Positions 6,285 to 23,364 of a stretch of DNA of 64,000 bases are shown piece after piece. The stretch is from Alphaproteobacteria bacterium (GTDB lineage: Bacteria; Pseudomonadota; Alphaproteobacteria; UBA2966). How positions within the stretch are numbered: position 1 is the stretch's first letter; every line of letters starts with the position of its first letter. The stretch is taken from contig JABILA010000094.1 of the NCBI GenBank assembly GCA_018654745.1, positions 19,237-83,236 of the forward strand, read 5' to 3'. The translations under genes and the position numbers were made by a program. The notes under the pieces were generated by a model. It was given only the letters and a program-made list of their open reading frames with translations. It did not search any database and had not been told where the DNA came from.

Positions 6285-8939
6285 ATGATCGATCCACAAA
6301 GTTCCTTTCAGGAAGCGCTTGTCCATCATAAGGCTGCGCGCCTGAATGATGCGGCACGTCTGTATCTCGAAACAATCGAACATGACCCTGGACATACCGA
6401 TGCTATGTGCAACTTTGCAGCATTGCGGTCCACTCAAGGTGCGTTTGACGAAGCCGGACAATATTTTGAGATGGCTCTGGGACTGATACCCAATGACGCA
6501 GATATTCTGACAAATTATGCCAATATGCTGTCTCGTCAGGGGTTACGGGACAAGGCGGAAGCTCGTTACAGAAAAGCATTGGAAGTTGCCCCTTCCTCAA
6601 TTTCCAGCTGTCTGGGTCTGGGGCAACTCTTGCTCACGGAACGCAGGATAAGCGAGGCCGTCAGTACATTTCGCCAGGCTGTGGATATCAAGCAAGACAG
6701 TTCGGAAGCGTGGCGTCTATTGGCATCCGCACAGATAGAAGCTGGTCAGACAGCTGAGGCAGTTGCTTCATTAGGCAAATGTCTTGAACTTGACCCGAGG
6801 GACAGTTCGGCGGCCTTTTCATTTGGTATTTTGTTAAGAAACCAGGGTAACCTTGAACAAGCCATCGCGTTTTTTCAGCGCGCATTACAAAATAGCAACC
6901 ACACGACAGCATGTGTTATTGCCGCAAATCTGGCTGAAGTTCTGGGTGACACCGGTCAAAAAATCGAGGCTATCAAGGTTCTGAATGAAGTCCTGAAGCA
7001 CTTTCCGGATTTTACCGAGGGCTGGAATAACCTTGGCACACTCTATCTGGGCCTTGACCGTTTTGACGAAGCGACCGCTGCCTACAAAAAATGCCGTGCA
7101 TTGTCGCCAGACAACATGATAGTTGCCAATAACCTGGCCGCTGCTTTTTTGAAATCCGGGCATCCGGAAAAATCACTTGCCTTGTATCAAAAGAATTTGA
7201 CGACCTGGCCTGATCAGGCCGATACGTTATCGGGTCTCGGCAATGTGCTGGTGTCACTGGAGAGCTTCGATGACGCGATAGAAGCCTATACAAGCGCCAT
7301 CGAACTTTCACCTGAAAACCTCGATGCATTACACGGGCGGGCTGTCGCTAACCATCGACGTGCTTCGATGTTTGGAGGTACAGAATATTATAGTGCAGCA
7401 CTGAAGGACTATCACACGGTAGCCACGCTGGATCCCATGCACCTCCATGCTCATCAGAATATGGGCCTGCTGTTGCAGTTGCTGGATGAGCATGAAAAAG
7501 CGATCACGGCCTTTCGTCGCGTTTTACAAGCCGACCCCCGATACCTTGCAGCCTATTCTTCCATGGCTCATTCCCTGCAACATTGCTGTCAGTGGGAAAA
7601 CCTGGATGCCACCATCGACCGTGTTGTCGCTTTGACCCGCGAGGAGATGGATTCTGGCAATGATATAACTGCGTCACCATTTAACCTGCTGCAGTTGTCA
7701 GCGCCTGGTGACGTAAGACTTGCATCTGCAAAGCAGGTTGCAAACATGTACAAACGTATTGCCGGAACAGGTGACGGACTGAATTTTACCTACAAAAAAC
7801 CCTCAGACGGTAAATTGCGCATCGGTTACATGTCCCCGGATTTTCGTGGTCACAGCGTCGGCAGAGCCTTTGAAGAATTACTGGCCGCCCATGACCGCGA
7901 CAATTTTACACTTTATGGCTATTACACTGGCACCAATGATGATGAAGTTACGACTCGTTTGAGACGCGACTTTGACGTCTTTCGAGAACTGACCAACACC
8001 CCTTTTCGCGATGCTGCAAAAGTTATTAATGACGACGGCATTGATATCCTTGTCGATTTGGCAGGCCATACAAAGGGCTGCCGATTTGAAGTTCTGGCGT
8101 TGAGGCCAGCACCAATACAGGCGCACTTTCTCGGATACGGATTTACGACGGGTGCGGACTACATCGACTGGCTCATTACCGACAAAATCAAAACCCCTGA
8201 AGAAGAACGCCCCTGGGTCGAAGAAAACCTTGCCTGGCTCCCCAATCAGTGCTTGCCGGCGTCTCGCCCGATCATATCGACAGAAACGTTCACACGTGAA
8301 CAGTTTGGCCTGCCCCAGGATGCATTTGTTTTTGCGGACTTTAACAGTCACTTCAAAATTGACCCGGAAGTGTTCTCAGCCTGGATGAGAATTTTGCGCA
8401 AGGCACCAGACTCAATATTATGGCTCATCGACTTTCAGGGCCCCGGCAACGAAGCATTGAAACGCGAAGCCAGCGCCAGAGGCGTTGATCCCTCGCGTAT
8501 CATATTTGCCGACAAATATCCAAATGATGTACACCTCGCCCGTCTCGCTCTGGCAGACCTTGCACTGGACACATATCACCACGCTGGTGGTGTAACGACT
8601 ACAGATGCCTTGTGGGCCGGACTACCGGTTCTAACGATCATGCATGAAGGCATGGTTGACAGATTGGGTGGGTCCGTTCTGACTGCCGCCGGGTTACCAG
8701 AACTGATCGCGTCGTCACTCGACGATTATATGCGCAAGGCTTTGGCTTACTTTGAAGATCCCGATAGCCTGCAGCGGTTGAAGGTCAAGTTGAAAGACAA
8801 TCAGGCCACGGAACCCCTGTTCGATACACCTCGATTAACCCGGGATCTGGAAGCCATTTTCACGGAAATGTGGAATCGATATGAAGACGGTGCCGAGCCA
8901 GGCACCATCGAACTTGCCCCCGTTCCTGCTGATGGCTGA
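6285..8939 (+). CDS. TPR + GT41 (OGT/SPINDLY-like) protein O-glycosyltransferase, paralogue 2
   Basis: TPRs plus LRIGYMSPDFRGHS, DILVDLAGHT, FNSHFKIDP and DALWAGLPV; AGGAGG immediately upstream. Confidence 0.9.
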   Translation: MIDPQSSFQEALVHHKAARLNDAARLYLETIEHDPGHTDAMCNFAALRSTQGAFDEAGQYFEMALGLIPNDADILTNYANMLSRQGLRDKAEARYRKALEVAPSSISSCLGLGQLLLTERRISEAVSTFRQAVDIKQDSSEAWRLLASAQIEAGQTAEAVASLGKCLELDPRDSSAAFSFGILLRNQGNLEQAIAFFQRALQNSNHTTACVIAANLAEVLGDTGQKIEAIKVLNEVLKHFPDFTEGWNNLGTLYLGLDRFDEATAAYKKCRALSPDNMIVANNLAAAFLKSGHPEKSLALYQKNLTTWPDQADTLSGLGNVLVSLESFDDAIEAYTSAIELSPENLDALHGRAVANHRRASMFGGTEYYSAALKDYHTVATLDPMHLHAHQNMGLLLQLLDEHEKAITAFRRVLQADPRYLAAYSSMAHSLQHCCQWENLDATIDRVVALTREEMDSGNDITASPFNLLQLSAPGDVRLASAKQVANMYKRIAGTGDGLNFTYKKPSDGKLRIGYMSPDFRGHSVGRAFEELLAAHDRDNFTLYGYYTGTNDDEVTTRLRRDFDVFRELTNTPFRDAAKVINDDGIDILVDLAGHTKGCRFEVLALRPAPIQAHFLGYGFTTGADYIDWLITDKIKTPEEERPWVEENLAWLPNQCLPASRPIISTETFTREQFGLPQDAFVFADFNSHFKIDPEVFSAWMRILRKAPDSILWLIDFQGPGNEALKREASARGVDPSRIIFADKYPNDVHLARLALADLALDTYHHAGGVTTTDALWAGLPVLTIMHEGMVDRLGGSVLTAAGLPELIASSLDDYMRKALAYFEDPDSLQRLKVKLKDNQATEPLFDTPRLTRDLEAIFTEMWNRYEDGAEPGTIELAPVPADG

Positions 8940-11355
8940 TCAAGACTTTGACGAACTGGTGGGCCAGGTAGAACTGGCTTTGCAAAATGGCGACATTCCG
9001 TCAGCCCAAAATTTTCTTGAAATCGCTGCTGCTCAAGCCCCGGACACAACGCTGGCTCACTTTCAATTGGGCAGCCTGAAGTTCAATCTGGGGGATTTCA
9101 AAGGGGCAATTCACCACTTCAAACAAGCTACTATCCTGGATCTGGAACTTCCTGAACCATGGCAGAACATGGGTTTGGCGCTGGAAGCAATGCTCCAATT
9201 TGAGGAAGCCATCCCTGCTTTCAGTCGCGCAACTGAATTAGCGCCTGATTGGCTCGATCCGTGGAAATCTTTGGGCTGTACCCTTGCCCGCCTGGACCGC
9301 TCTGCCGAAGCGATTAAGCCATTGGAAACAGCGAATAAACTTGCGCCAAATGATAGTCAGATCACATTTTTTCTCGGTAATTCGTATCTTGCCGCTGGCG
9401 ATTCCAATAATGCTGTCAGCACCCTGGGAATAGCCGCTGTTTTGTCGCCCGATGACGCAGATGTCTTGAATAACCTCGGCCAGGCTTTCGAGCTATCCGG
9501 TGATCTTGATAGTGCTGCAAATGCCTATGGCAATGCCAGAAAATCGTCGCCAGATCATCTTCGTGCAAACAGGGGATATGCCCGGACATTATTGCAATTA
9601 AAGAGGGGCGCAGAAGCGGAAGTCGCCTTGCGACAAATTATTTCCCTGAAACCGGAAGAACCTGAGGCCTATGTGGAGCTGGGTAGTTATCTGCAAAACA
9701 ACCAGCGCAATCGCGAAGCAGCAGACATCATGCTCAAGGCCGTCAATTTTGCCGGTGATGATCCGATTCTGGTCAATAATCTTGCCGTATCTCTCGCCAG
9801 CATAGGTGAATATTCCAAAGCCAAAAAATGGTACGACAAACTGATACAGCTGGTTCCAGACCGCGCGGGTCCGCTTGTTAATTATGCGACAATGCTGGAA
9901 ATGCTGGAGCGGTCGGACGAAGCTCTTGTCATGCTGCAGCACGCCGTCAGGATAGATCCATCCTACGCTCCTACATACTCACTTCTTGTCCACGGCAAGT
10001 TGAGACAATGCCAATGGGACAATCTTGAGGCGCTTGTGACCCGGATCATTGACGATTCAAAACAAGAGATTTCGGAAGGAAAACGCCTTTCCGCATTACC
10101 TTTTGTCCTTCTGGCCTTACCTGTACCGCTGGATATCAGACTGGAAGCTTCACGCCAACTGGCAACAACTGCCCGGTCGAGCGTACTGGCACCAACGCAA
10201 GAGACCCCATTCCACCACAATCCACAAAGTACATCTCGCAAAATCCGGGTCGGATATATTTCTCCCGATTTTCGAATGCACAGTGTAGGTATGTGTTTCC
10301 GGTCCATCGTGACTAATCACGACCGCCAGAAGTTTGAAGTTTTTGGCTATCACATGGCTACAAAGCCAGACGATGATACGACAACATTTTTCAAAGAGTC
10401 GTTTGATACGTTCCGCGATATTCGCGAACTTTCCACTGCTGATGCCGCCCGACTCATTCATGAAGATGGTATTGATATTCTGGTTGATCTGGCAGGGCAC
10501 ACACGGGGTTCCCGGATCGAAATACTTGCGCTGAAGCCGGCTCCCGTTCAAGTGCACTATCTGGGATATGGTGCCACAACAGGTGCTGATTTTATCGATT
10601 ACCTGATTACAGATGACACGGTGATGAACGAAGAAGCCTCTCGTTGGTGCAGTGAAGCATTGGCCTTTCTTCCACAAACCTTTATGCCGCCACTTGGCCT
10701 CCCTTGCCCAGCAAATACGCTGGATCGCCGGGAAGAAGGATTGCCGGAAAATGGTTTTGTTTTCTCAAATTTCAGCGCGCATTACAAAATCGACCCTGAA
10801 ATATTTTCAATCTGGATGAGAATACTGAAACGCACACCAGGAAGCGTATTGTGGTTGATTTCCGGATCCGAAAAGAGTGTCGAAAACCTGCGCAAAGAAG
10901 CAAAAGCCCGCGGTGTCGACCCGGAAAGATTGATCATGGCCCAACGTTGTGATCACGAAACTCATCTCGCCCGGCATCATCTGGCGGATTTATGTCTGGA
11001 CAATTATTTCCACGCTGGTGGCGCAACCACACTTGAGGCCCTTTCATGTGGACTTCCAGTCCTGACCCATCAGGGCCCTTACCCCAACTCCCGTACAGGC
11101 GCTGGTATGTTGAAAGCAGCAGGTCTTTCGGAATTGGTTGCCAGGGATTTGACTGAATATGGGAAAATTGCACTTGAACTCGCACAGTCTCCCGATCGCA
11201 TGTCTGCTCTGAGAAATCACCTGTCCGGAGACAAACAGGCACTCCCCTTGTTTAACAACATTCTTTTTGTATCCCGTCTTGAGCAACTTCTATTCGGAAT
11301 GTGGGAAAAATATCAGACGGGTGAACCAGCAGACACAATACGGCTTGATGATTAG
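8932..11355 (+). CDS. TPR + GT41 (OGT/SPINDLY-like) protein O-glycosyltransferase, paralogue 3
   Basis: TPRs plus IRVGYISPDFRMHS, DILVDLAGHT and FSAHYKIDP; start set at ATG 8932 (MADQDF), overlapping the upstream stop. Confidence 0.88.
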   Translation: MADQDFDELVGQVELALQNGDIPSAQNFLEIAAAQAPDTTLAHFQLGSLKFNLGDFKGAIHHFKQATILDLELPEPWQNMGLALEAMLQFEEAIPAFSRATELAPDWLDPWKSLGCTLARLDRSAEAIKPLETANKLAPNDSQITFFLGNSYLAAGDSNNAVSTLGIAAVLSPDDADVLNNLGQAFELSGDLDSAANAYGNARKSSPDHLRANRGYARTLLQLKRGAEAEVALRQIISLKPEEPEAYVELGSYLQNNQRNREAADIMLKAVNFAGDDPILVNNLAVSLASIGEYSKAKKWYDKLIQLVPDRAGPLVNYATMLEMLERSDEALVMLQHAVRIDPSYAPTYSLLVHGKLRQCQWDNLEALVTRIIDDSKQEISEGKRLSALPFVLLALPVPLDIRLEASRQLATTARSSVLAPTQETPFHHNPQSTSRKIRVGYISPDFRMHSVGMCFRSIVTNHDRQKFEVFGYHMATKPDDDTTTFFKESFDTFRDIRELSTADAARLIHEDGIDILVDLAGHTRGSRIEILALKPAPVQVHYLGYGATTGADFIDYLITDDTVMNEEASRWCSEALAFLPQTFMPPLGLPCPANTLDRREEGLPENGFVFSNFSAHYKIDPEIFSIWMRILKRTPGSVLWLISGSEKSVENLRKEAKARGVDPERLIMAQRCDHETHLARHHLADLCLDNYFHAGGATTLEALSCGLPVLTHQGPYPNSRTGAGMLKAAGLSELVARDLTEYGKIALELAQSPDRMSALRNHLSGDKQALPLFNNILFVSRLEQLLFGMWEKYQTGEPADTIRLDD

Positions 11356-11452: not shown

Positions 11453-12274
11453 TCAATTACCCTGGAACAAATTCAGAATGTGCTGTGGGCCCGAGTTTGC
11501 AATGGAAAGAGATTGAACTCCAAGTTTTTGTTTAACTTGTTGGGCCTGCAAATTGGCACTTTCTGCTCCAAGATCCGCGTCGATCAGATTGCCGACACCT
11601 TCTTTGAGGATATCTTGCAACTGAGTCGTAAACTTAGCCTGATTGTCGATTTGATTTGCAGAAGATCCAAGCGACGCCTGCTGGGCGGACGCGGTACTAA
11701 TTGCAGAATCAATCGCAGTTAAGGCGGTTTGAGAATTGGCAACGCTATCCAGACTAAGGGTATCAATTCCCAGTCCACCGGCGCTGAAATCCTGCGCGAC
11801 AACAGTCATCCGATTACCGTTGTCATCTTTCAGAACATCAAGATTGCCTGAACCCGCCTTGATCAGATTAGTTCCATTAAAGCTGGCTGATTCCACAATA
11901 GAACCGGCTTGATCACGCAGAGAATTGAATTCAGCATTCAGGGCTTCTCGCGATGTCGCGTCAAGACCTTCCTGGTTTGCCTGAACGGCAACTGACTTCA
12001 TCTCAATGAGCAAATCAGATACAGCCTGAGCGCCTACTTCGGCGACACCAACGGAGCTTTGGGCGAAGTTCAGACCACTTTTTACAGCGCCTGCACCGCC
12101 AATATCACCAAGCAATCTTTGTGCTATGGCCAAAGTGGCTGCGTCGTCTTTCGGACTGTTTATTTTAAGACCAGTAGAAATACGGTTGTTCGTATTTCCA
12201 ACAGACTTTGTTGTCTGATTCAGCTTTTGCAGCGCATTAAATGCGCCGGAATTTGTATTTATGGATTGCACCAT
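11453..12274 (-). CDS. fliC: Flagellin, divergent (minor) paralogue
   Basis: SINTNSGA...RISTGLKINSPKDDAA N-terminus; ASFNGTNL; NLIDADLGAESANLQAQQVKQKLGVQSLSIAN C-terminus. Confidence 0.93.
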   Translation of the reverse strand: MVQSINTNSGAFNALQKLNQTTKSVGNTNNRISTGLKINSPKDDAATLAIAQRLLGDIGGAGAVKSGLNFAQSSVGVAEVGAQAVSDLLIEMKSVAVQANQEGLDATSREALNAEFNSLRDQAGSIVESASFNGTNLIKAGSGNLDVLKDDNGNRMTVVAQDFSAGGLGIDTLSLDSVANSQTALTAIDSAISTASAQQASLGSSANQIDNQAKFTTQLQDILKEGVGNLIDADLGAESANLQAQQVKQKLGVQSLSIANSGPQHILNLFQGN

Positions 12275-12557
12275 AACTAAACCCTTTTTCTATTTCCGGC
12301 TGAGGCTTCTCCCCCTCCGGCGGGCCAATGCGTGTGCTTCTGCGACGCTTGTTTTCAATTGGCGGACAATTGAATACTTCACCCAATCATCCCCGGTATT
12401 CAAGGTGGATTTATCACCACCCATTACCACGGACACACGTCCAACCAATTTAATCTTTGTAAACTTTACCCTTTATTAACCAACGAAGCAAGGTTTAAAA
12501 CCATGACATCGCGAGCATCAAAAACACTCGCTTTGCCAATATCAAAATCGGGATCTG

Positions 12558-12604
12558 AAAGGAAGTTCCGGCTCCACCGACGATGCCAGTGGAACCGGAA
12601 TTTC
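12558..12604 (-). terminator. Stem-loop terminating flagellin operon A
   Basis: Minus strand GAAATTCCGGTTCCAC-N11-GTGGAGCCGGAACTTC-CTTTC directly after the stop at 12611. Confidence 0.65.
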
Positions 12605-12610
12605 TTACAC

Positions 12611-13426
12611 CTAACCGAACAGGGCCAGAATGCTTTGTGGGCCTGAATTTGCAATCGACAAAGCCTGCACACCAAGCTGTTGCTTGATTTGCAAGGACTG
12701 CAAGGCAGCACTTTCTTCAGCCAGGTCAGCGTCGACAAGGTTGCCTACACCTTCCTTCAGAATGTCGACCAACTGAATAGTAAATTCAGCCTGGACGTCA
12801 ATTCGTTTGGATGAAGAACCCAATGATGCCAAAGAGGAAGTCACCGAGTTGATAGCTGCATCGATTTTGGTTAATGCAGTTACAGCACCCGCAGACAGAT
12901 CCAATGAAGCGCTCTGAATGCCAAGGGTTGTGGCGTCCATGCTTTGTGCAGAAACCGAGATGGTACTGCCATCCACTGTCGAAAGAACCGTCAAGGCACT
13001 TGCAGCAGATGTGATCAGGTTCTTGCCGTTGAATTCAGCCGTTTTCACGATTGTTTCCAACTGATCACGAAGGCTGGTGAAGTCGTTATTCAAAGCAGTT
13101 CTGGAAGCAGTATCCAGTCCAGCCTGATTGGCCTGAACAACTTTGGCCTTCATTTCAGTCAACATGTCGGCCACAGCCTTACCAGCTGTAATCGCCACGT
13201 TAACTGTAGCCTCACCATTTGAAAGTGCTGTTTTAACAGCACCCATGCCGGCGATATCACCACGCATACGCTGTGCAATAGCGTAGGTAGCAGCATCATC
13301 TTTCGGGCCGTTCACTTTAAGGCCGGTCGTGATGTGCAGCTGGGTTGTCTCCAACATTTTGTTGGATTTGTTCAGGTTCTGCAAAGCCAGCATTGCGCCG
13401 ACGTTTGTATTTACTGACATTCCCAT
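12611..13426 (-). CDS. fliC: Flagellin (operon A, central type X)
   Basis: 271-aa short Caulobacter-type flagellin; TGLKVNGPKDDAA and NLVDADLAEESAALQSLQIKQQLGVQALSIAN; GGAG RBS. Confidence 0.97.
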   Translation of the reverse strand: MGMSVNTNVGAMLALQNLNKSNKMLETTQLHITTGLKVNGPKDDAATYAIAQRMRGDIAGMGAVKTALSNGEATVNVAITAGKAVADMLTEMKAKVVQANQAGLDTASRTALNNDFTSLRDQLETIVKTAEFNGKNLITSAASALTVLSTVDGSTISVSAQSMDATTLGIQSASLDLSAGAVTALTKIDAAINSVTSSLASLGSSSKRIDVQAEFTIQLVDILKEGVGNLVDADLAEESAALQSLQIKQQLGVQALSIANSGPQSILALFG

Positions 13427-13498
13427 TGTAGATGTCTCCTATTCTGAGAGCATTTAAACGACGTCTTCTGACGTCTCTTACGCTTGGTTTCGCTTTCC

Positions 13499-14308
13499 TT
13501 AGCCGAACAGGGCCAGAATGCTTTGTGGGCCAGAATTTGCGATAGACAGAGCCTGCACACCAAGCTGTTGCTTGATTTGTAAGGACTGCAAAGCAGCACT
13601 TTCTTCAGCCAGATCAGCGTCAACAAGGTTGCCAACACCTTCCTTCAGAATGTCGACCAGCTGAACGGTAAATTCAGCCTGAACATCAATCCGTTTGGAA
13701 GAAGAACCCAACGATGCCAGTGAAGAAGTCACTGTGTTAATCGCAGCATCAATCGCAACCAGAGCAGCAGATGCACCACTCGAGATGTTGGATGCGTTAA
13801 TACCCAGTGTTGTGGTATCAAGCTTTTGTGCTGCAACCGAGATCGAACTGCCGTCAACGGTAGAAAGAACCGTCAAAGAAGTCGCAGCAGAAGTGATCAG
13901 GTTTTTGCCGTTGAATTCAGCCGTCTGCACGATCGTCGTCAACTGATCGCGAAGGGAGGTGAAATCATTCTGCAAGGCATCTTTGGAAGCTGTATCCAAA
14001 CCAGCCTGGTTGGCTTGAACGGTTTTGGCTTTCATTTCTGTCAGCATGTCAGCCACAGCTTTACCAGCTGTAATCGCCACGTTAACAGTTGCCTCACCGT
14101 TTGAAAGAGCTGTTTTAACAGCACCCATACCGGCAATATCACCACGCATCCGTTGTGCGATAGCGTATGTAGCAGCATCATCTTTCGGGCCGTTAACTTT
14201 CAGGCCTGTCGTGATGTGCAACTGGGTTGTCTCCAACATTTTGTTGGATTTGTTGAGGTTCTGCAGAGCCAGCATTGCGCCAACATTTGTATTTACGGAC
14301 ATTCCCAT
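13499..14308 (-). CDS. fliC: Flagellin (operon A, central type Y)
   Basis: 269 aa; same termini as its neighbours; central AQKLDTTTLGINASNISSGASAALVAID. Confidence 0.97.
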   Translation of the reverse strand: MGMSVNTNVGAMLALQNLNKSNKMLETTQLHITTGLKVNGPKDDAATYAIAQRMRGDIAGMGAVKTALSNGEATVNVAITAGKAVADMLTEMKAKTVQANQAGLDTASKDALQNDFTSLRDQLTTIVQTAEFNGKNLITSAATSLTVLSTVDGSSISVAAQKLDTTTLGINASNISSGASAALVAIDAAINTVTSSLASLGSSSKRIDVQAEFTVQLVDILKEGVGNLVDADLAEESAALQSLQIKQQLGVQALSIANSGPQSILALFG

Positions 14309-14377
14309 TTTAGTCGTCTCCTATTCTGAGAGTATTTATTCGACGTCTTCTGACGCCTCTTGGTTTTCGTCTTATCC

Positions 14378-15193
14378 TTAGCCGAACAGGGCAAGAATAC
14401 TTTGCGGACCGGAGTTCGCGATGGACAGAGCCTGCACGCCAAGCTGTTGCTTGATTTGCAATGACTGCAATGCAGCGCTTTCTTCGGCCAGATCGGCATC
14501 AACGAGGTTGCCAACACCTTCTTTCAGAATGTCGACCAGCTGAACGGTAAATTCAGACTGAACGTCAATCCGTTTGGATGATGAACCCAGTGATGCCAGT
14601 GATGCAGTAACCGAGTTGATCGCAGCGTCGATTGTAGTTAGTGCAGTTGCTGCACCCGAAGCACTGGTCAGGATGTCAGCTTCAATGCCAAGAGCGGTTG
14701 CATTCATGACCTGGGCTGATACAGAGATGGTGCTGCCATCTACTGTCGAAAGCACGGTCAAGGCACTTGCGCCGGTCGTAATCAGGTTTTTACCGTTGAA
14801 TTCAGCTGTCTGAACAATTGTCTCCAGCTGATCACGCAGAGATGTAAAGTCATTGTTCAAAGCAGTTCTGGATGCTGTATCCAGACCAGCCTGATTGGCC
14901 TGCACGACCTTGGCTTTCATTTCGGTCAACATGTCGGCCACAGCTTTACCAGCTGTAATAGCCACGTTCACAGTTGCCTCACCGTTTGAAAGCGCTGTTT
15001 TAACAGCACCCATACCGGCGATATCGCCACGCATCCGTTGCGCAATAGCGTATGTAGCAGCATCATCTTTCGGGCCATTCACTTTCAGGCCGGTCGTGAT
15101 GTGCAGCTGGGTTGTTTCCAACATTTTGTTGGATTTGTTCAAATTCTGCAGCGCCAACATGGCACCGACATTGGTATTTACGGACATTCCCAT
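14378..15193 (-). CDS. fliC: Flagellin (operon A, central type Z)
   Basis: 271 aa; central TTGASAL...AQVMNATALG...ASGAATALT; AAGGAG RBS. Confidence 0.97.
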   Translation of the reverse strand: MGMSVNTNVGAMLALQNLNKSNKMLETTQLHITTGLKVNGPKDDAATYAIAQRMRGDIAGMGAVKTALSNGEATVNVAITAGKAVADMLTEMKAKVVQANQAGLDTASRTALNNDFTSLRDQLETIVQTAEFNGKNLITTGASALTVLSTVDGSTISVSAQVMNATALGIEADILTSASGAATALTTIDAAINSVTASLASLGSSSKRIDVQSEFTVQLVDILKEGVGNLVDADLAEESAALQSLQIKQQLGVQALSIANSGPQSILALFG

Positions 15194-15268
15194 AATTGGT
15201 TAACTCCTTATTCTAAGTCATTGATGCCAGCATTTTGCTCGCAGGAAATTTCTTTCCGCGCAATAACT

Positions 15269-15284
15269 AGCAACGAACGTGCCA
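15269..15284 (-). promoter_or_regulatory. Sigma-54 (-24/-12) promoter of flagellin operon A
   Basis: Minus strand TGGCACGTTCGTTGCT matches TGGCAC-N5-TTGCW, ~75 bp upstream of the start codon. Confidence 0.9.
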
Positions 15285-15390
15285 TTTTTGCCGACAGGCA
15301 GGAATTTCTTGTTGTTTTTATATCCTATTGATATTAAACGATTTTATTCATGGTAAATGCATTGTTAATAAGCAAAGGTTGCCATATCAG

Positions 15391-15425
15391 CCCGGCATTT
15401 ATTACCGGGTCGGCAATATCTGCCG
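15391..15425. promoter_or_regulatory. Tandem ftr-like (FlbD-type enhancer) palindromes
   Basis: CCCGGCATTTATTACCGGG and CGGCAATATCTGCCG, ~110-140 bp upstream of the sigma-54 promoter and separated from it by an AT-rich (IHF-like) tract. Confidence 0.65.
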
Positions 15426-15666
15426 CATGACAAGAACTATTTGCCTGGCTGCACACAGAACACACTGCTGCATATACAGTTCGTGCAATTTTCATGAATA
15501 AAAGTTGACTGACGCCTATCGGTTAGCCGGCGAACACGATCAGTTCAGGTATGGAAGAAAGACTATTTATTGAGAGTTTTCCGGGTAGAATCCCTGGTGC
15601 AGCTGAGTACCTATCTTTGAAGGTCCAACGTCTCGCAAACCAGATAACTCGGATAATGGAGTATGT

Positions 15667-16038
15667 TCAGCTTTCGCTGTCCGGAACAGCTGCCTGGGCA
15701 TTTAGCCCTTCCATGATCGATCTGTTTACTGACACTAGTGGATCAAGATCGCCAATGCCCTTGAGGACGTCAACAGTATAGCGATCAACCCACATTGCCA
15801 GGGAGATCAACTGAGCCCTGAGATCTTCATCAAGGGCATTGTCTTCTGAGGAAAGATCCATTTGCAAAGCCAGCCAGAGGCGGCGATTTGCATCAATGGC
15901 TTCAAAGTAGTCAGACCCCATGCGACCGCTTTCGGAAACGGCCATCAAGTTTCGTGTTATTTCAGCAAACAGGCGATATTCTGCCTGGCGTGGTGCATCG
16001 AACTTGGATTGGGCTGATTTGTATTTGTCGTAAGACAT
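15667..16038 (-). CDS. flaF: FlaF-family flagellin regulator/chaperone (canonical type)
   Basis: PRQAEYRLFAEIT, AIDANRRLW, DNALDEDLRAQLISLAMWV and LVSVNRSIMEGL. Confidence 0.9.
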   Translation of the reverse strand: MSYDKYKSAQSKFDAPRQAEYRLFAEITRNLMAVSESGRMGSDYFEAIDANRRLWLALQMDLSSEDNALDEDLRAQLISLAMWVDRYTVDVLKGIGDLDPLVSVNRSIMEGLNAQAAVPDSES

Positions 16039-16116
16039 TCCAGGCGGTCCATCCAGGCATTCAACTGTCGCCGAAAATTGCGGGAAAGACGACTGTCATA
16101 GATGCTAGGACCACAA

Positions 16117-16133
16117 GGTTAGCGGAATGTTAA
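16117..16133 (-). promoter_or_regulatory. CtrA-type binding site upstream of flaF (16038)
   Basis: Minus strand TTAA-CATTCCG-CTAACC, one mismatch to TTAA-N7-TTAAC. Confidence 0.65.
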
Positions 16134-16248
16134 CGGAAGAGAAATTTCGTGGTCGCCGAAAGCCAGTGCCCGAGGCCCCTGCCAGTACCAATACAGTAAC
16201 GGCAGGGATATCTCAGCGGGCAATCGATATCAGAATATTACTGTTCTA

Positions 16249-16590
16249 TCAGGTTAAACCTTCCATGATAGAACGGTTAACTGAAATCAGCGGCGCAATC
16301 CGGGCTTTGCCCTTCATTGCTAGGCTGGAATGTTTGTCGACCCAGATAGCCAACGACAAGAGTTTGGCTTTCAATTCATCTGGCAACAAATTGTCTTCAG
16401 CGGCCAAGTCAAACTGCAGTGTCGACCAAAGACGACGATTCCAGTCCACAGCGCCGTAAAACTGTTTGTCACTGTGTTCCTTGTCTTCAGCGTCCATAAG
16501 AGAACGTGTGACAAGGGCAAACAGCCGGTATTCGGTCTGACGGGGGCCTTCCGTAATGGCCTGGGTTGCCTGATAAGATTGCGTGTACAT
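16249..16590 (-). CDS. flaF: FlaF-family flagellin regulator/chaperone (canonical type)
   Basis: YQATQ...PRQTEYRLFALVT, AVDWNRRLW, DNLLPDELKAKLLSLAIWV and PLISVNRSIMEGL. Confidence 0.92.
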   Translation of the reverse strand: MYTQSYQATQAITEGPRQTEYRLFALVTRSLMDAEDKEHSDKQFYGAVDWNRRLWSTLQFDLAAEDNLLPDELKAKLLSLAIWVDKHSSLAMKGKARIAPLISVNRSIMEGLT

Positions 16591-16662
16591 TTGCTGATAC
16601 CTTTCTTGATCTTCGTCTTGGAATATCTATTGATAACTTGATGAAGTAGAGGACTTTCTGGA

Positions 16663-17475
16663 TTAGCCACCAAACAGTGACAGGATGCTTTGTGGACCCG
16701 AGTTCGCAATCGACAAGGCCTGAACACCGAGTTGTTGTTTGATTTGCAAGGCCTGCAAGCTGGCGCTTTCTTCCGCAAGATCTGCATCAACAAGGTTGCC
16801 GACGCCTTCTTTCAGAATATCAACCAGTTGAGTTGTAAAGTCAGTTTGCACCTCAATACGTTTCGCAGCAGAACCCAACGAGGCAAGGCTTGAGGTCACC
16901 GTATTGATCGCCGCATCGATGGCAACCAGCGCTGCAGAAGCACCGCTGGAAATATTCGATGTGCTAATCCCCAGCGTAGCGGCGTCAAGTTTCTGGGCAC
17001 CTACCGAGATCACACTACCGTCGACTGTCGACAAGACTGTCAAAGATGTTGCGACTGATGAAATAAGGTTCTTGCCGTTGAATTCAGCGGTCTGAACAAT
17101 TGTCTGAAGTTGATCGCGCAGAGACGTAAAGTCATCATTCAAAGCTGTCTTGGAAGCCGTATCCAGTCCGGCTTGATTGGCTTGCACTGTCTTGGCTTTC
17201 ATTTCTGTCAACATGTCAGAAATCGCTTTACCGGCGGTAATCGCAACGTTGAGCGTCGACTCACCTGCCGCCAGAGCAGTTTTCACTGCCTGCATGCCAG
17301 CAATATCGCCACGCATACGCTGGGCAATGGCGTAAGTCGATGCATCATCCTTTGGTCCGTTGACCTTCAAACCAGTGGTGATATGCAACTGTGTTTTTTC
17401 CAACTGATCATTAGACCGGTTCAGATTCTGCAGCGCGATCATGGCACCGACGTTTGTATTAATTGACATACCCAT
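16663..17475 (-). CDS. fliC: Flagellin (operon B, central type Y)
   Basis: 270 aa; B-type N-terminus (NRSNDQLEKTQ); central AQKLDAATLGISTSNISSGASAALVAID; GAGGAG RBS. Confidence 0.97.
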   Translation of the reverse strand: MGMSINTNVGAMIALQNLNRSNDQLEKTQLHITTGLKVNGPKDDASTYAIAQRMRGDIAGMQAVKTALAAGESTLNVAITAGKAISDMLTEMKAKTVQANQAGLDTASKTALNDDFTSLRDQLQTIVQTAEFNGKNLISSVATSLTVLSTVDGSVISVGAQKLDAATLGISTSNISSGASAALVAIDAAINTVTSSLASLGSAAKRIEVQTDFTTQLVDILKEGVGNLVDADLAEESASLQALQIKQQLGVQALSIANSGPQSILSLFGG

Positions 17476-17547
17476 TGTTTTTCTCCTCGTAGAATTTCTA
17501 TTCTGATTGATTGATTGGTGTTTCGATATTCGCTGGCGACCCGATCG

Positions 17548-17883
17548 TCAGGTCAGCCCGTCGATAACATTCCGATTAACAACAATCAGTGGATTAATTC
17601 TGCCTTCACCACGAAGGACCCTCGCCGTTTGTTCTTCTACCCAGGCACCTAGCTGATCGATCTGATCGCGCAATTCCGCAGGCAAGCGGTTGGCGCGGGA
17701 CATAACATCGCGCCTCAAGGCACTCCACAAAGAACGGTTACGGTGAAGTGCAGCATAGTAATCAAAATCCGGTTTCTCAGAGTTGCCAGCTTCGATCAGC
17801 TCTTCCGTGATCATGCGCATGATTTTTTGTTCGTCTATGCGACGATCGATGTCTGCTTTCATGCTCTTTGTGGTATTTGTCAT
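17548..17883 (-). CDS. flaF: Divergent FlaF-like protein
   Basis: ALHRNRSLW, ANRLPAELRDQI..LGAWV and PLIVVNRNVIDGL align with the FlaF C-terminal pattern; the PRxxEYRLF motif is absent. Confidence 0.8.
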   Translation of the reverse strand: MTNTTKSMKADIDRRIDEQKIMRMITEELIEAGNSEKPDFDYYAALHRNRSLWSALRRDVMSRANRLPAELRDQIDQLGAWVEEQTARVLRGEGRINPLIVVNRNVIDGLT

Positions 17884-17940
17884 ATTGTTTCTCTTTGAGT
17901 TTCGTTTAGTTGATCGTTTTGATAGCTGGCGTCAGACTGC

Positions 17941-18759
17941 TTATCCACCGAACAGTGACAGGATGCTCTGAGGACCAGAGTTGGCAATTGACAGCGCTTG
18001 AACACCAAGCTGTTGTTTGATTTGAAGGGCCTGCAAGCTGGCGCTCTCTTCAGCAAGATCTGCATCTACCAGGTTTCCGACACCCTCTTTGAGAATATCA
18101 ACCAACTGCACAGTGAAATCTGTCTGAACTTCAATCCTCTTGGCAGAAGAACCGAGCGACGCCAGTGACGAAGTTACTGAGTTGATTGCAGCATCGATAC
18201 TTGTCAGCGCGGTTGCGGCACCTGATGCATCCGCCAGGGTACTCGTATCAAGCCCGAGGGCCGTTGCATTCATAACCTGTGGGGTAACAGAAATTGTGCT
18301 GCCATCAACAGTGGACAATACCGTCAAGGCACTGGCACCGGTGGTGATCAGGTTTTTGCCATTAAATTCGGCAGTTTGTACGATTGTCTCAAGCTGGTCG
18401 CGCAAGGAGGTGAAATCATCACTCAATGCGACCCTTGATGCGGTATCCAGTCCGGCCTGGTTGGCCTGAACGGCTTTCGCTTTCATTTCAGTCAGCATGT
18501 CCGAGATAGCTTTACCGGCAGTGATGGCCACATTCAGGGTCGACTCGCCTGCCGCTAGTGCCGTCTTAACGGCCTGCATGCCTGCAATATCACCGCGCAT
18601 ACGCTGGGCAATCGCATATGTTGACGCATCGTCCTTCGGGCCGTTCACCTTCAAGCCGGTTGTGATATGCAACTGTGTCTTTTCCAACTGGTCATTAGAC
18701 CGGTTCAGGTTCTGCAGTGCGATCATGGCGCCGACGTTGGTGTTAATGGACATACCCAT
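17941..18759 (-). CDS. fliC: Flagellin (operon B, central type Z)
   Basis: Start at ATG 18759 (MGMSINT) after AGGAG; central TTGASAL...QVMNATALG...ASGAATALT. Confidence 0.97.
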   Translation of the reverse strand: MGMSINTNVGAMIALQNLNRSNDQLEKTQLHITTGLKVNGPKDDASTYAIAQRMRGDIAGMQAVKTALAAGESTLNVAITAGKAISDMLTEMKAKAVQANQAGLDTASRVALSDDFTSLRDQLETIVQTAEFNGKNLITTGASALTVLSTVDGSTISVTPQVMNATALGLDTSTLADASGAATALTSIDAAINSVTSSLASLGSSAKRIEVQTDFTVQLVDILKEGVGNLVDADLAEESASLQALQIKQQLGVQALSIANSGPQSILSLFGG

Positions 18760-18868
18760 TGTATTTTCTCCTGCTTCAACAGCTTCAATGCTGTCGTTAG
18801 TTTCGTTCAATAACTTGAGATATTACGTATTGCTTGATGATGACTGTTTTCAGTGATGAACAGACTTG

Positions 18869-19204
18869 CTAAGCCAATCCATCGATGACGTTGCGGTTGA
18901 CGACGATCAGCGAATTGATCTCGCTTTCGCCACGGAGAACACGCGCTGTTTGCTCTTCTACCCAACGTCCCAATTGATCGATCTGTTCGCGCAAATCTTG
19001 TGGCAAACGGTTGGCCCTGGACATGACGTCCTGACGTAATGCACTCCACAGAAATTTGTTGCGATCAAGCGCTTCAAAATAATCAGCGTCCCGTTGGCTG
19101 GAGCCGCCTGCCTTAATCAGATCTTCAGTCACATGAAGCAAAACTTTTTGCTCTTCTGCACGACGATCGAGGTCTGATTGGGTATTTGCTGAAACATTAC
19201 TCAT
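18869..19204 (-). CDS. flaF: Divergent FlaF-like protein
   Basis: ALDRNKFLWSALRQDVMSRANRLP...WVEEQTARVLRGE...LIVVNRNVIDGL; close paralogue of 17548-17883. Confidence 0.8.
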   Translation of the reverse strand: MSNVSANTQSDLDRRAEEQKVLLHVTEDLIKAGGSSQRDADYFEALDRNKFLWSALRQDVMSRANRLPQDLREQIDQLGRWVEEQTARVLRGESEINSLIVVNRNVIDGLA

Positions 19205-19261
19205 CGCATTTCTCTCTTTTGTCTTCTGATGATCCGGAGGATGATTAGTGATCTACGTTGC

Positions 19262-20080
19262 TTAGCCGCCGAACAAGGACAAGATGCTCTGAGGACCAGA
19301 GTTCGCAATCGACAAAGCCTGCACGCCAAGTTGCTGTTTGATCTGCAATGCCTGCAATGATGCACTCTCTTCAGCGAGATCAGCATCCACCAGATTTCCA
19401 ACACCCTCTTTGAGAATATCGACAAGTTGAGTCGTAAAATCTGTTTGAACTTCAATTCGTTTGGCGGAAGAACCCAGCGAGGCCAGCGATGAAGTAACGG
19501 AGTTTATTGCTGCATCAATTTGCGTCAAAGCTGTAGCGGCAGATGCAGATAAATCCAGCCCTGAAGTCAAAATCCCCAGCGTTGTTGCATCCATACTTTG
19601 GGCAGTCACTGAAATTGTGCTGCCATCAACAGTCGACAGAACGGTCAAGGCGCTTGCGGCCGAGGTAATCAGGTTCTTGCCGTTGAATTCAGCTGTTTGA
19701 ACAATCGTCTCGAGTTGATCACGAAGAGACGTAAAGTCATCATTCAATGCTGTGCGCGACGCACCATCCAGACCGGCCTGATTGGCCTGAACAGCTTTCG
19801 CCTTCATTTCAGTCAGCATGTCCGAGATGGCTTTACCGGCAGTAATTGCGACATTCAAGGTCGATTCGCCAGCGGCCAGTGCTGTTTTGACGGCCTGCAT
19901 ACCGGCGATGTCACCGCGCATGCGCTGGGCAATGGCATAAGTCGATGCGTCGTCTTTTGGTCCATTGACCTTCAAACCAGTGGTGATGTGGAGCTGCGTT
20001 TTCTCCAATTGATCATTTGACCGGTTCAGGTTCTGCAGTGCGATCATGGCACCGACGTTGGTATTGATGGACATTCCCAT
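19262..20080 (-). CDS. fliC: Flagellin (operon B, central type X)
   Basis: Start at ATG 20080 (MGMSINT) after AAGGAG; central AQSMDATTLGILTSGLDLSA. Confidence 0.97.
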   Translation of the reverse strand: MGMSINTNVGAMIALQNLNRSNDQLEKTQLHITTGLKVNGPKDDASTYAIAQRMRGDIAGMQAVKTALAAGESTLNVAITAGKAISDMLTEMKAKAVQANQAGLDGASRTALNDDFTSLRDQLETIVQTAEFNGKNLITSAASALTVLSTVDGSTISVTAQSMDATTLGILTSGLDLSASAATALTQIDAAINSVTSSLASLGSSAKRIEVQTDFTTQLVDILKEGVGNLVDADLAEESASLQALQIKQQLGVQALSIANSGPQSILSLFGG

Positions 20081-20158: not shown

Positions 20159-20173
20159 GCAATAGGCATGCCA
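20159..20173 (-). promoter_or_regulatory. Sigma-54 (-24/-12) promoter of flagellin operon B
   Basis: Minus strand TGGCATGCCTATTGC with correct GG-N10-GC spacing, ~80 bp upstream of ATG 20080. Confidence 0.85.
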
Positions 20174-20285
20174 GTTTGAATTCACGCACCCCAGATGGAC
20201 CGTAAGTATTTGTTATTGCTATGTTTTGCATGGACCATTATCAATTTTTTCCCCAACCTAATTTGGTGTCCTGCCCCTCTACTGA

Positions 20286-20343: not shown

Positions 20344-20430
20344 TCAAATCCCGACATTTCCGGCAATGACATTGGGGCAAACAGCACATGTTAAGCGATT
20401 TATTAACCTTGTCAGCCTACGCACTTAAGG

Positions 20431-23364
20431 ATGAATAACGCTGATGAAATCCTTGAAAACGCTGTCGCAGCCCACAGGGCCGGAGATGCCGTAACTGCAG
20501 TGAGCCTTTATCGACAAGTGCTGGCCATATCGCCGGATAATGGTGATGCTTTGCGCAATCTGGCGACCCTTCTGGCGACAAGCGGAGAGCTGGAGGAAGC
20601 TGCTGACCTCTACCACAGTGCTTTATTACTGGACCCCCATGACCTGGCTGTTCTAACCAACATGGGTCACATCCTTCGGGCCCTGGGAAAAACTGACGAA
20701 GCTTGCTCTCTTTATAATAGGGTACTGGAAATCGCTCCGGATCAAAGCGAGATCAGGATTGCACTGGCTGATATACATCTGCTGGAAGGCAAAGCTGAAA
20801 TCGCCGCGGAGCATTATAAGGAAGCCATCGAACGTGGCACATCGCATAGTCGCATACATGCAAATCTCGCCGCAGCGCTACATTCCCTTGATCGATTGAC
20901 GGAAGCTCTCGAACAGTCAGAAATCGCGGTTCGACTGGACGTCGAAAATGCCGATGCCTTGAACATCATGGGTAGGGTCAAGTCAGGGCAGAACAAGTTC
21001 GAAGAAGCGGTGTCAGCCTTTCAGGGTGCGATACATTTGCGTCCAGACTGGTATCCGCCTCGGCTGGACCTTGGCATCACATGGCAAAAATTGGGAAAAT
21101 TGCCTGAGGCACTGGAGGCGCTGGAACAAGCATGGATGCTTAATCCAAACGATCTGGAAACCGGCAAGGCAATGGTCTCAGTTATGATTGCGCTCGGTCA
21201 GACTGAGGAAGCTGAAGATCTACTCAACACCCTGGACAAAATATTTCCGGAAAATAGTGAACTGCCATTTCACCGGGCAATTAACGACCGGTCCATGGGC
21301 AAACTCGAAGAATCTGTAGACCTTTTCAGGCTTGCGATTGAGCGGGGTCTGGATGCGCCGGAAGCGCACAACAATCTTGCTGTATCACTTTTTGATCTAC
21401 GACGCCTGGATGAAACATTCGCTGCCGCCAATAAGGCAATCGCACTCGATCCTGATTTTCCCTCTGCTTACAACACCTTAGGGAACTGGGCCTCGGAAGT
21501 TGGGGAACTCGCCAAGGCAAAGAACTATTACCTGAAGGCCAATGAGCTTGAACCGGATTTTGCGGCTGCTATTTCCAATGCAGCTTATGTTACACGCTTG
21601 CAAGGTTCACTGGACGAATCTATCCAGCTTTACAAAACGGCCCTTGATATTGACCCACAGCTCGCTGAAGCGTGGAGTGGCCTCGGCCTGACTTATCAAC
21701 AGAACAATCGATTTACGGAGGCCCTGGCAGCTTTCGACGAAGGGCTAAAGGGCCACCCGGATAACTGGGAGCTATTAAACAACAAAGCGATCAGCTATCA
21801 GGCAACCGGACATATCGACGAAGCTCTTGCGACCTACAAATCAGCTTTGGACTCCAAGCCGGACAACCCGGAAATCTATTACAATCTGGGTAACTTGCTG
21901 TTGACCTTAAAGCGAATCGACGAAGCAATTGAGATGTTCAATGCCGCTCTTCGCTTGCGGCCAGATTACAATGCCGTTTTTTCCTACCTGGCCCATGCCT
22001 TGATGCAGCAATGCAACTGGGTCAACCTGGAGGCGGCCATCGAGCGTATTGAGCAAAACATCGCAGAAGAAGTGAAAAGCGGCAAAACTATTAGCACTTC
22101 TCCGTTCAGCATGCTGAGTTTACCGGTTCCGGCCCAATACAGGCTCCTGAGTTCCAGGCAATTGGCAGCCCAAACTGCTATGGAACTGGAACACCAACGC
22201 AAAAGTATCAAGTTTCAATATAAGCCAAAAGGTGAAAAGCTAAAAATCGGTTACGTTTCACCGGACTTCCGTCGGCACAGCCTGGGCTTGACTTTCCTGG
22301 ACCTTTTGATGGCGCACGATAATGATTCGTTCGAGTTTTATGGATACGCCATGTTCTCAAACGATCCAGATGAAGTCACCAACCAGTTCGGGAAGGTCTT
22401 TGATCATTTCCGGGATTTGACACCCTGTTCCCATGAAGATTCTGCCCGTGTCATTAATGAGGATGGCATCAATATTCTTGTAGATCTTGCAGGTTACACA
22501 AAAGGGTCCCGTCTACAAATTTTTTCCCTGCTGCCGGCGCCTGTTCAAGTTCATTATCTGGGTTATGGCCACACCTTGGGGGCAGATTTTATCCCATGGC
22601 TCATCACAGATCACGATGTGATCCCTGAAGACATAGCAGCGCACTGTAGTGAAAAATTGATATATCTGCCCGATAGTTTCCTCGCCACATCCCGACACGA
22701 AATTTCACAGGTAAAGCAATCACGTGCCGACTTCGGACTACCCGAAAATGCTTTTGTCCTCGCCAACTTCAATGGGTTATACAAGATAGATCCAAAAGCC
22801 TTCGCGGTTTGGATGCGATTTATGCGAAAGACTCCGGACGCCATACTCTGGCTCTCTGCAGGAACTGTGGGCGGTGAAAACAATCTTCGCAAGGAAGCCG
22901 AGGCCCGGGGCGTACAGCCTGACAGGATAATTTTTGCAAAGAACATTCCGCATACAAGTCACCTGGCGCGGCTGCAACTTGCCGATATTGCGCTCGACGC
23001 CTACTACCATTCAGGCGGCGTAACCACCACTGACGCCATATGGGCGGGATTACCTATCTTGACAGTCGCTGGCCCTACACCGAGTGCACAAACAGGCGTA
23101 TCCGTCTTAAAAGCGGCGAGGTTACCGGAGTTGATCACATATTCCCTGGATGAATATGAAAAACAATTGCACCACCTTGCCGGCAACCGGGAAGAATTGG
23201 CGAAAATCAGGAGCCGTATGACATCTACCAGAGATGAAGTTCCACTATTTGATTCCCAACGCCTCGCCCGTCACCTCGAGCTTGGTTACAACATGATGTG
23301 GGAACAATACGAGGCAGGGTTAGAGCCGAAAGGCTTTGATATCCCAGCTATTTCCCAGGTATAG
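20431..23364 (+). CDS. TPR + GT41 (OGT/SPINDLY-like) protein O-glycosyltransferase, paralogue 4
   Basis: Long TPR array plus LKIGYVSPDFRRHS, ILVDLAGYT, FNGLYKIDP and DAIWAGLPILT; divergent from flagellin operon B. Confidence 0.9.
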   Translation: MNNADEILENAVAAHRAGDAVTAVSLYRQVLAISPDNGDALRNLATLLATSGELEEAADLYHSALLLDPHDLAVLTNMGHILRALGKTDEACSLYNRVLEIAPDQSEIRIALADIHLLEGKAEIAAEHYKEAIERGTSHSRIHANLAAALHSLDRLTEALEQSEIAVRLDVENADALNIMGRVKSGQNKFEEAVSAFQGAIHLRPDWYPPRLDLGITWQKLGKLPEALEALEQAWMLNPNDLETGKAMVSVMIALGQTEEAEDLLNTLDKIFPENSELPFHRAINDRSMGKLEESVDLFRLAIERGLDAPEAHNNLAVSLFDLRRLDETFAAANKAIALDPDFPSAYNTLGNWASEVGELAKAKNYYLKANELEPDFAAAISNAAYVTRLQGSLDESIQLYKTALDIDPQLAEAWSGLGLTYQQNNRFTEALAAFDEGLKGHPDNWELLNNKAISYQATGHIDEALATYKSALDSKPDNPEIYYNLGNLLLTLKRIDEAIEMFNAALRLRPDYNAVFSYLAHALMQQCNWVNLEAAIERIEQNIAEEVKSGKTISTSPFSMLSLPVPAQYRLLSSRQLAAQTAMELEHQRKSIKFQYKPKGEKLKIGYVSPDFRRHSLGLTFLDLLMAHDNDSFEFYGYAMFSNDPDEVTNQFGKVFDHFRDLTPCSHEDSARVINEDGINILVDLAGYTKGSRLQIFSLLPAPVQVHYLGYGHTLGADFIPWLITDHDVIPEDIAAHCSEKLIYLPDSFLATSRHEISQVKQSRADFGLPENAFVLANFNGLYKIDPKAFAVWMRFMRKTPDAILWLSAGTVGGENNLRKEAEARGVQPDRIIFAKNIPHTSHLARLQLADIALDAYYHSGGVTTTDAIWAGLPILTVAGPTPSAQTGVSVLKAARLPELITYSLDEYEKQLHHLAGNREELAKIRSRMTSTRDEVPLFDSQRLARHLELGYNMMWEQYEAGLEPKGFDIPAISQV

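Follow-up and report, generated by a model that had tools for sequence, protein, structure and literature searches.

A two-by-three mosaic of flagellin genes in an uncultured marine alphaproteobacterium: termini that follow the array and centres that follow the type

It is not settled why bacteria retain many flagellin genes, a question that has been called open for Caulobacter (available part of PMC10369909). The DNA studied here raises it in a particular form. Our window, by which we mean the whole 64 kb stretch that was analysed (G000:C6:19237-83236), comes from the draft genome, in 155 contigs, of an uncultured marine alphaproteobacterium (G000). It encodes six flagellins of about 270 aa each on the minus strand, in two arrays called A and B; the two ends of each gene resemble those of its neighbours in the same array, and its centre resembles that of one gene in the other array. 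How did such a criss-cross pattern arise, and what maintains it? We think it rather probable that the six genes are part of an old duplicated flagellin family, held in two arrays and evolving reticulately by gene conversion, and that the matrix of two arrays by three central types is the product of this process. The six genes are positioned in the window as follows.

19262..20080, minus strand: flagellin B3, array B termini, central type X
17941..18759, minus strand: flagellin B2, array B termini, central type Z
16663..17475, minus strand: flagellin B1, array B termini, central type Y (the short type)
14378..15193, minus strand: flagellin A3, array A termini, central type Z
13499..14308, minus strand: flagellin A2, array A termini, central type Y (the short type)
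12611..13426, minus strand: flagellin A1, array A termini, central type X, with Flagellin_N and Flagellin_C domains

An earlier reading of this DNA from its letters alone (the sequence-only reading) had placed six genes at these coordinates, which we confirm, on the minus strand. Our alignments contain all the strings that it quoted for each array, the contrast of ALFG with SLFGG at the ends, its three central types and a Y type shorter by 2 aa. For B2 and B3 the longest open reading frames (ORFs) begin further upstream, at TTG or GTG codons, and we used the conserved MGMS start instead, as the sequence-only reading had done. A1 scores 105.2 bits against Pfam Flagellin_N (PF00669) and 63.5 bits against Flagellin_C (PF00700), above the curated cut-offs, and the five remaining array flagellins are 82-93% identical to it over their full length. 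Along the direction of transcription the type order is X-Z-Y in array B and Z-Y-X in array A.

The array-versus-type mosaic of these six genes is real. Termini group by array, and centres group into the three types, X (A1 and B3), Y (A2 and B1) and Z (A3 and B2). In 90-nt windows, nucleotide identity within an array is 76-96% at the termini and 45-61% at the centre, and the same-type pairs across arrays (A1/B3, A2/B1, A3/B2) have a flat identity of 67-81% over the whole gene. Sites with an array pattern lie outside nt 271-600 in 29 of 32 cases, and the sites that have a type pattern are within it in 25 of 25 cases (Fisher p = 3e-13). The same division is seen in the proteins when the 12 array genes of G000 and of a second genome of the same genus (G001) are taken together. 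Eighteen residues are diagnostic for the array, 12 of them in aa 13-86, one at position 114 and five in aa 206-271, so that 17 of the 18 are in ND0/ND1a and CD1/CD0, the segments that build the filament core. The residues diagnostic for a type (six for X, 15 for Y and nine for Z) are all 30 within aa 109-194, which extends from the last part of ND1b over the hairpin and the Ser/Thr-rich loop to the first part of CD1.

Trees of the N-terminal, central and C-terminal segments conflict with one another, an incongruence between termini and centre that the sequence-only reading had predicted. By the approximately unbiased (AU) test, type clades forced on the termini are rejected at about 1e-40 or below (p-AU 1.7e-53, 3.6e-56 and 1.2e-40), and array clades forced on the centre are rejected at about 3e-6 (p-AU 2.7e-6 and 4.0e-6). 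In array A the termini group by species and not by gene (for example, A1 and A2 of G000 join at 95/95), and clades of G000 and G001 orthologues are rejected there for A1 (p 0.008) and for A2 (p 7e-6). A GENECONV-like run test also finds one long, recent conversion tract between A1 and A2 of G001 at nt 702-802, a run that was reached in 0 of 1000 permutations. Paralogues that are closer to one another than to their orthologues are the mark of concerted evolution; they are found at the termini of array A and not among the centres of neighbouring genes. Concerted evolution of the array A termini thus went on after speciation.

Purifying selection maintains all six genes, including the type-specific centre: same-type centres across arrays differ at a proportion of 0.08-0.11 of nonsynonymous sites (pN) versus 0.67-0.82 of synonymous sites (pS). 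Within array B the N-terminal 90 aa have a pN of 0.000-0.010 versus a pS of 0.64-0.66, and this uniformity is old and is now held by purifying selection. The termini of array A are younger (pS 0.32-0.54).

The matrix recurs in relatives. G001 has an identical layout, in which the seven flagellins and the four flaF genes follow one another as they do in G000 (L051, L052 and L129 repeat the sequences of G001 and were not counted as independent), and thus has the two-by-three arrangement. Among metagenome contigs, a third lineage (L130, L131 and L137) has A-type and B-type termini and again three central types, in the order a-b-c in both arrays and with other sequences. Lineages 4 and 5 (L138 and L139), also from metagenome contigs, read B'(P)-flaF-B'(Q)-flaF-flaF-A'(P)-A'(Q), a two-by-two matrix. 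The claim that three central types are kept in two sets therefore also holds for G001 and lineage 3. In the L138 and L139 contigs, which are 1.15 and 1.8 Mb long, the hypervariable core of type P is identical between arrays over 19 residues, and all four N-termini are B-like, so that the array-specific part is found at the C-termini only. Single genes of this flagellin group are present in G002 and G005. The X, Y and Z centres belong to the window's own group, and they were not found in the other genera searched. Two short contigs have smaller arrays: one of G001 (G001:C70, L002) carries a Z-type gene, an X-type gene and then the divergent flagellin D, with no Y gene, and L133, at a coverage of about 2, reads B1-flaF2-flaF1-Y-D, so that array A is one gene there. 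They may be copy-number variants that occur naturally, or else shortcuts that the assembly took through the conserved termini.

Across lineages the termini and centres again have different histories. At the N-terminus array A forms a clade over lineages 1-3 with a support of 100/100, and a constraint that unites all A and B genes of lineages 1 and 2 is rejected (p 0.003); the split between A and B therefore predates lineage 3. At the centre an array A clade is rejected (5e-12). The c-type gene of array A in lineage 3 pairs with its array B counterpart (94/87 on the centre, 99/95 on the core), the two a-type genes pair likewise on the core (93/91), and the centres of lineages 4 and 5 all fall in one clade (100/99). 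When lineage-3 centres are forced next to those of the same array in lineages 1 and 2, the placement is rejected by 8 of 8 tests for the 180-nt centre (p 3e-5 to 0.04) and by 6 of 8 tests for nt 271-600. For the short type, identity across arrays within a lineage is 26/31, 27/31, 27/31 and 19/31 in four lineages, and identity within an array between lineages is 14-19 of 32-33. A quick protein tree of 68 family members did not resolve how A is related to B.

The explanation that we favour runs as follows. Short flagellins of the Caulobacter type would have been duplicated long ago and held in two arrays, each behind a sigma-54 motif. Their terminal segments (aa 1-90 and 201-271) would form the filament core and the export and chaperone-binding parts, and would be homogenised repeatedly among neighbours of the same array by gene conversion. 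The centre (about aa 109-194) would lie on the filament surface and be too unlike between neighbours to convert, and it would persist for that reason as three types, each common to one gene per array through common descent and occasional exchange between arrays. Conversion would act wherever copies are similar enough: at the termini near neighbours would outcompete the distant partner, and at the centre the only similar copy would be that partner in the other array. The result would be a concerted evolution that is segmental and goes in two directions, in which termini evolve with their array and centres with their partner in the other array. The subunits, partly redundant, would likely co-assemble into one filament as in Caulobacter; by the same analogy their exposed centres would be O-glycosylated by the neighbouring enzymes that join tetratricopeptide repeats (TPR) to a GT41 glycosyltransferase, and they would be handled by FlaF, with FlbT encoded nearby.

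Several observations weigh against this explanation. Among 91 pairs, the run test picked out a single tract that is clearly recent, although such a test suits recent events and not an old mosaic. In array B, ortholog clades are not rejected at the termini (p 0.08-0.37), and their uniformity could come from purifying selection alone. The centres of G000 and G001 group by type and then by array within type (the B3 pair at 97/96, the B1 pair at 87/93), so that no exchange between arrays is visible since these two genomes split, and a clade of A1 and B3 of G000 is rejected at the centre (p 0.017). Synonymous sites are near saturation, with pS of 0.44-0.85 even between G000 and G001 orthologues; the events therefore cannot be dated, and synonymous divergence was likewise ruled out as a means of dating the duplication. 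The lineage-3 genes come from three separate contigs of one metagenome and maybe not from one genome. For the 90-nt hypervariable core, a clade of all short-type genes (p 0.23) and a clade of lineages 1 and 2 (p 0.13) both escape rejection. The clades of the wider-lineage tests were picked after the trees had been inspected, their p values are uncorrected for multiple testing, and the segments tested are short.

Could the arrays instead be copies of one another? In such a history one X-Y-Z array was copied as a block, the termini were then homogenised within each array, and the centres descended vertically with no exchange between arrays. The flat identity of the same-type pairs over the whole gene speaks for it, the grouping of G000 and G001 centres by array within type agrees with it, and both arrays of lineage 3 have the order a-b-c. 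Against it, the N-terminal split of A from B predates lineage 3, yet the centres of lineages 3 and 4 pair across arrays within their lineage, rather than with centres of the same array in other lineages. The layout also differs, since flaF genes sit between the flagellins of array B and none do so in array A, and the type orders are not the same; the arrays are therefore not simple block copies. We regard a block duplication as unlikely. The four flaF genes score 80.5-113.6 bits against a PF07309 cut-off of 23.6 and lie as follows.

18869..19204, minus strand: flaF4 (PF07309 E 9e-23), 67% identical to flaF3
17548..17883, minus strand: flaF3 (PF07309 E 1e-22)
16249..16590, minus strand: flaF2 (PF07309 E 6e-33), 48% identical to flaF1 and 32-37% identical to flaF3 and flaF4
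15667..16038, minus strand: flaF1 (PF07309 E 4e-30)

They form two subfamilies, flaF3/4 embedded in array B and flaF1/2 adjoining array A. The array that had been called operon B does hold three flagellins; its interleaving with flaF, and altogether four flaF and four TPR-GT41 genes in the window, had been overlooked.

Gene conversion apart, selection may have a hand in the matrix as a whole. Matched types are present in both arrays across lineages, so that gains and losses of types seem to be parallel in the two arrays, and we consider this retention the most interesting part of the finding. It is conceivable, if rather improbable, that selection keeps the arrays as matched kits, with the same repertoire of glycosylated surface types on two filament-core chassis that are served by different FlaF subfamilies. 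If this were true, the arrays would be two insulated channels of export and assembly, for example for successive segments of the filament or for alternative mechanical forms with an identical surface, and the parallel gain and loss of types (two by two in L138 and L139, two by three in three other lineages) would be the footprint of the constraint.

A stronger version of such a constraint was the conclusion of the sequence-only reading, that the filament obligately needs each of three subunit types and that two separately regulated sets provide two alternative versions of it. In its favour, all three types are found in both arrays of G000, G001 and lineage 3 and two types in L138 and L139, the type-specific centre is under purifying selection, and no Caulobacter filament made of a single flagellin gives wild-type motility (PMC10369909, the part available). 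Each array also has a sigma-54 motif of its own. The regulatory features found around the arrays are these.

20159..20173, minus strand: sigma-54 type -24/-12 motif, TGGCATGCCTATTGC, 79 nt upstream of the B3 start
15270..15284, minus strand: sigma-54 type -24/-12 motif, TGGCACGTTCGTTGC, 77 nt upstream of the A3 start
12566..12600, minus strand: terminator-like hairpin with a 16-pair stem, directly after A1 (from a consensus scan only)

On the minus strand the order of transcription is thus the first sigma-54 motif, B3, flaF4, B2, flaF3, B1, flaF2 and flaF1, followed by the second sigma-54 motif, A3, A2, A1, the hairpin and flagellin D. The pattern TGGCAYN5TTGC has exactly two matches in the 64 kb, where 0.64 are expected, and both are ahead of the arrays on the coding strand; two or more matches somewhere in the window were seen in 14 of 100 shuffles. 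We take each array to be preceded by a putative sigma-54 promoter, both of the same class, and the hairpin after A1 is likely the end of the array A transcript. The spacers of array A are 69-72 nt long, and both (13427-13498 and 14309-14377) contain the palindrome GACGTC-AGAA-GACGTC about 35 nt before the start codon, perhaps an RNA hairpin with a role in processing, stability or FlbT control.

RNA contigs from three libraries of three studies lie, with zero differences, on D, on A1-A3 and on the flaF genes. Each of the three libraries has contigs on genes of both arrays, and B1-B3 are fully covered only by the three libraries combined. Both arrays are thus represented in RNA of the same samples, at levels that cannot be read from contigs; word depth is greater for array A than for array B in 3 of 3 RNA runs, a comparison we did not use since contig depth cannot rank genes. 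Contigs from the three libraries bridge the A3-A2 spacer, although such bridging does not show a single transcript. The regions upstream of the two sigma-54 motifs (15291-15597 and 20203-20500) and after the A1 hairpin (12221-12527) have essentially no RNA-contig cover in the three runs and are covered by DNA run X3; these gaps beside the motifs and the hairpin are at most a weak hint of transcript ends.

Separate regulation is only weakly supported, with a motif for each array but the same promoter class ahead of both and RNA contigs from the same three libraries on both. The sequence contains nothing that would demand an obligate three-subunit filament in two versions. In Caulobacter, the nearest system studied so far, any one of the five structural flagellins is enough for a filament and motility (PMC7591256, available part), and gene number in this group varies from one (G002, G005) through two plus two (L138/L139) to three plus three. 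Array A is reduced to two genes or one in the two short contigs described above, which could themselves be assembly shortcuts. The genome also encodes two further flagellins, D and E, which the sequence-only reading had missed, for a total of eight. We hold that an obligate filament of three types is very unlikely.

Selection without recombination might also be proposed. The termini would be co-adapted to array-specific partners (for example flaF3/4 versus flaF1/2) or to an order of export, and purifying or convergent selection alone would keep them uniform. The near identity of the array B N-termini in spite of their synonymous divergence fits such selection, as do the two FlaF subfamilies, one of them embedded in array B, and the position of 17 of the 18 array-diagnostic residues in core-building segments. 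But in the nucleotide sequences of the array A termini, paralogues of one species are closer to each other than to their orthologues, and there is a conversion tract, neither of which is explained by selection on the protein, and the single FlaF of Caulobacter binds all six of its flagellins (available part of PMC7591256). We give little credence to this account.

Finally, it is hardly credible that the metagenome-assembled genome spliced the flagellin repeats of several strains into chimeric genes, since, for all its draft state and the co-occurrence of related strains (contig L134 resembles a join of two species' B3 units), the longest exact run common to any two of the six genes is 34 nt, contigs of a DNA run from another study (over A1, B1-flaF3-B2, B2 and B2-flaF4-B3) span the terminus/centre junctions in A1, B1, B2 and B3 with 0-1 differences, 72-98% of the sampled words are present in 14 DNA runs that stem from at least 12 studies (two of these runs maybe being the source sample), and the gene order is reproduced by G001 and L135. 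The mosaic is not an assembly artefact. L134 itself is a 2.8 kb metagenome contig with a B3-flaF4 unit identical to that of G000 and an X-type unit with the B3 centre of G001; two species that co-occur were probably joined in it as a chimera, and a real tandem duplication is less likely.

What the two parts of these proteins do can be approached from Caulobacter, whose filament structures of FljK, FljL, FljM and FljN are matched by A1 over its full length (E 1.5e-61 to 1.4e-58); in the best of these alignments residues 4-270 correspond to 5-272 of 6xky (E 1.5e-61). At about 270 aa, with D0 and D1 only and no D2/D3 insert, the array proteins are short flagellins. An AlphaFold2 (AF2) model shows four long helices, at 4-33, 45-99, 106-140 and 178-270, together with a hairpin at 146-157 (mean predicted local distance difference test score 67.9); as it is of moderate confidence, we took from it only the boundaries of secondary structure. 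In Caulobacter the glycosylated threonines lie immediately to either side of the surface beta-hairpin (PMC10369909, available part), and FlmG, which combines TPR with a GT-B glycosyltransferase, binds flagellins through its TPR domain (PMC7591256, available part). By analogy, the flagellin centres are probably a glycosylated surface here. Four proteins encoded on either side of the flagellins have TPR repeats and a Glyco_transf_41 domain, at 243-283 bits.

3092..6019, plus strand: TPR + GT41 glycosyltransferase paralogue a, TPR repeats and Glyco_transf_41
6285..8939, plus strand: TPR + GT41 glycosyltransferase paralogue b, TPR repeats and Glyco_transf_41
8881..11355, plus strand: TPR + GT41 glycosyltransferase paralogue c, TPR repeats and Glyco_transf_41
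20431..23364, plus strand: TPR + GT41 glycosyltransferase paralogue d, beside array B in divergent orientation

All four have the FlmG-type architecture, an N-terminal TPR part and a C-terminal GT-B part encoded together with flagellins, and are candidate flagellin glycosyltransferases on this resemblance. They are 35-44% identical to one another overall and 25-34% in the TPR part, and G000 has seven GT41-family genes in all. The longest ORF of paralogue c and the end of paralogue b have 59 nt in common (8881-8939), and its true start may be downstream. After the TPR-GT41 genes comes a sugar-modification island of about 23 kb (23348-46578), with B12-radical-SAM enzymes, FkbM and other methyltransferases, RmlC/RmlD-like enzymes, DegT aminotransferases and glycosyltransferases. 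The island and the TPR-GT41 genes are probably for the biosynthesis of an elaborate flagellin glycan.

Three further flagellar genes of this genome are the following.

11453..12274, minus strand: flagellin D, seventh and divergent, 57% identity to A1
G000:C44:6064-6876: flagellin E, the eighth, 73% identical to A1
G000:C6:13923-14294, 5 kb upstream of the window: FlbT gene, 149.7 bits

Flagellin D scores 100.6 and 54.7 bits against Flagellin_N and Flagellin_C, again above the curated cut-offs. It is also beside array A in G001 and in L128-L130, and L138 and L139 have it inverted. Strict patterns for a CtrA box and for sigma-28 gave no match upstream of D, and flagellin E has a sigma-54-like motif at -69. 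In Caulobacter, FlaF is a secretion chaperone, and FljJ, which is 49% identical to the other Caulobacter flagellins, acts with FlbT in the control of translation (all in the available part of PMC7591256). Flagellin D is a candidate counterpart of this regulatory flagellin.

Concerted evolution of flagellin paralogues and alphaproteobacteria with several flagellins are already known, and the present locus has likenesses to both. Like Caulobacter crescentus (fljJ/K/L and fljM/N/O), it combines six genes, divided over two clusters, with a divergent paralogue, encodes flagellins that are short (about 270 aa) and have D0 and D1 only, and has genes for FlaF and FlbT as well as TPR and glycosyltransferase genes beside the flagellins; the PF13844 GT41 model also matches a Caulobacter control genome. 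Caulobacter has one FlaF and one TPR-glycosyltransferase, unlike the four FlaF and four TPR-GT41 paralogues here, and this genome also differs in its eight flagellins and in the sigma-54 motif ahead of both arrays. A criss-cross mosaic such as this one is not mentioned for Caulobacter in the available parts of PMC7591256 and PMC10369909.

Tandem flagellin paralogues that are homogenised by intragenomic recombination are also a feature of Campylobacter flaA/flaB and of the fla genes of Alteromonadales. Recombination between flaA and flaB of Campylobacter is discussed in PMC5126078, which also cites the title of a paper by Meinersmann and Hiett from 2000, and fla of Alteromonadales is among the long-lasting concertedly evolving genes of PMC6053082, in the available part of each. 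Unlike in those groups, homogenisation here is segmental and would go in two directions, within the array at the termini and between arrays at the centres, and it concerns a matrix of six genes that several lineages have conserved. Neighbouring genera (L055, L064, L065 and L069) have the same flagellin family in a tandem triplet followed by flaF, and their pattern is the inverse: the N-termini are position-specific and form orthologous groups across genera, and the centres are near-uniform. We found no conserved array-by-type flagellin matrix with homogenisation in two directions in the literature searched, which leaves subscription journals and supplementary files outside its scope.

For the biology of the flagellum the locus is a natural experiment, in which the core-forming and surface-forming parts of one subunit have separable histories and in which the same surface types have been retained on two different cores across several lineages. 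It makes testable the ideas that the termini are tuned to partners in assembly and to chaperones, and that the centre is tuned to glycosylation or to pressure from phages and grazers. It would also show cleanly, for a bacterial gene family, a concerted evolution that is segmental and goes in two directions, and its mosaic would mislead whole-gene phylogeny or orthology calls for flagellins.

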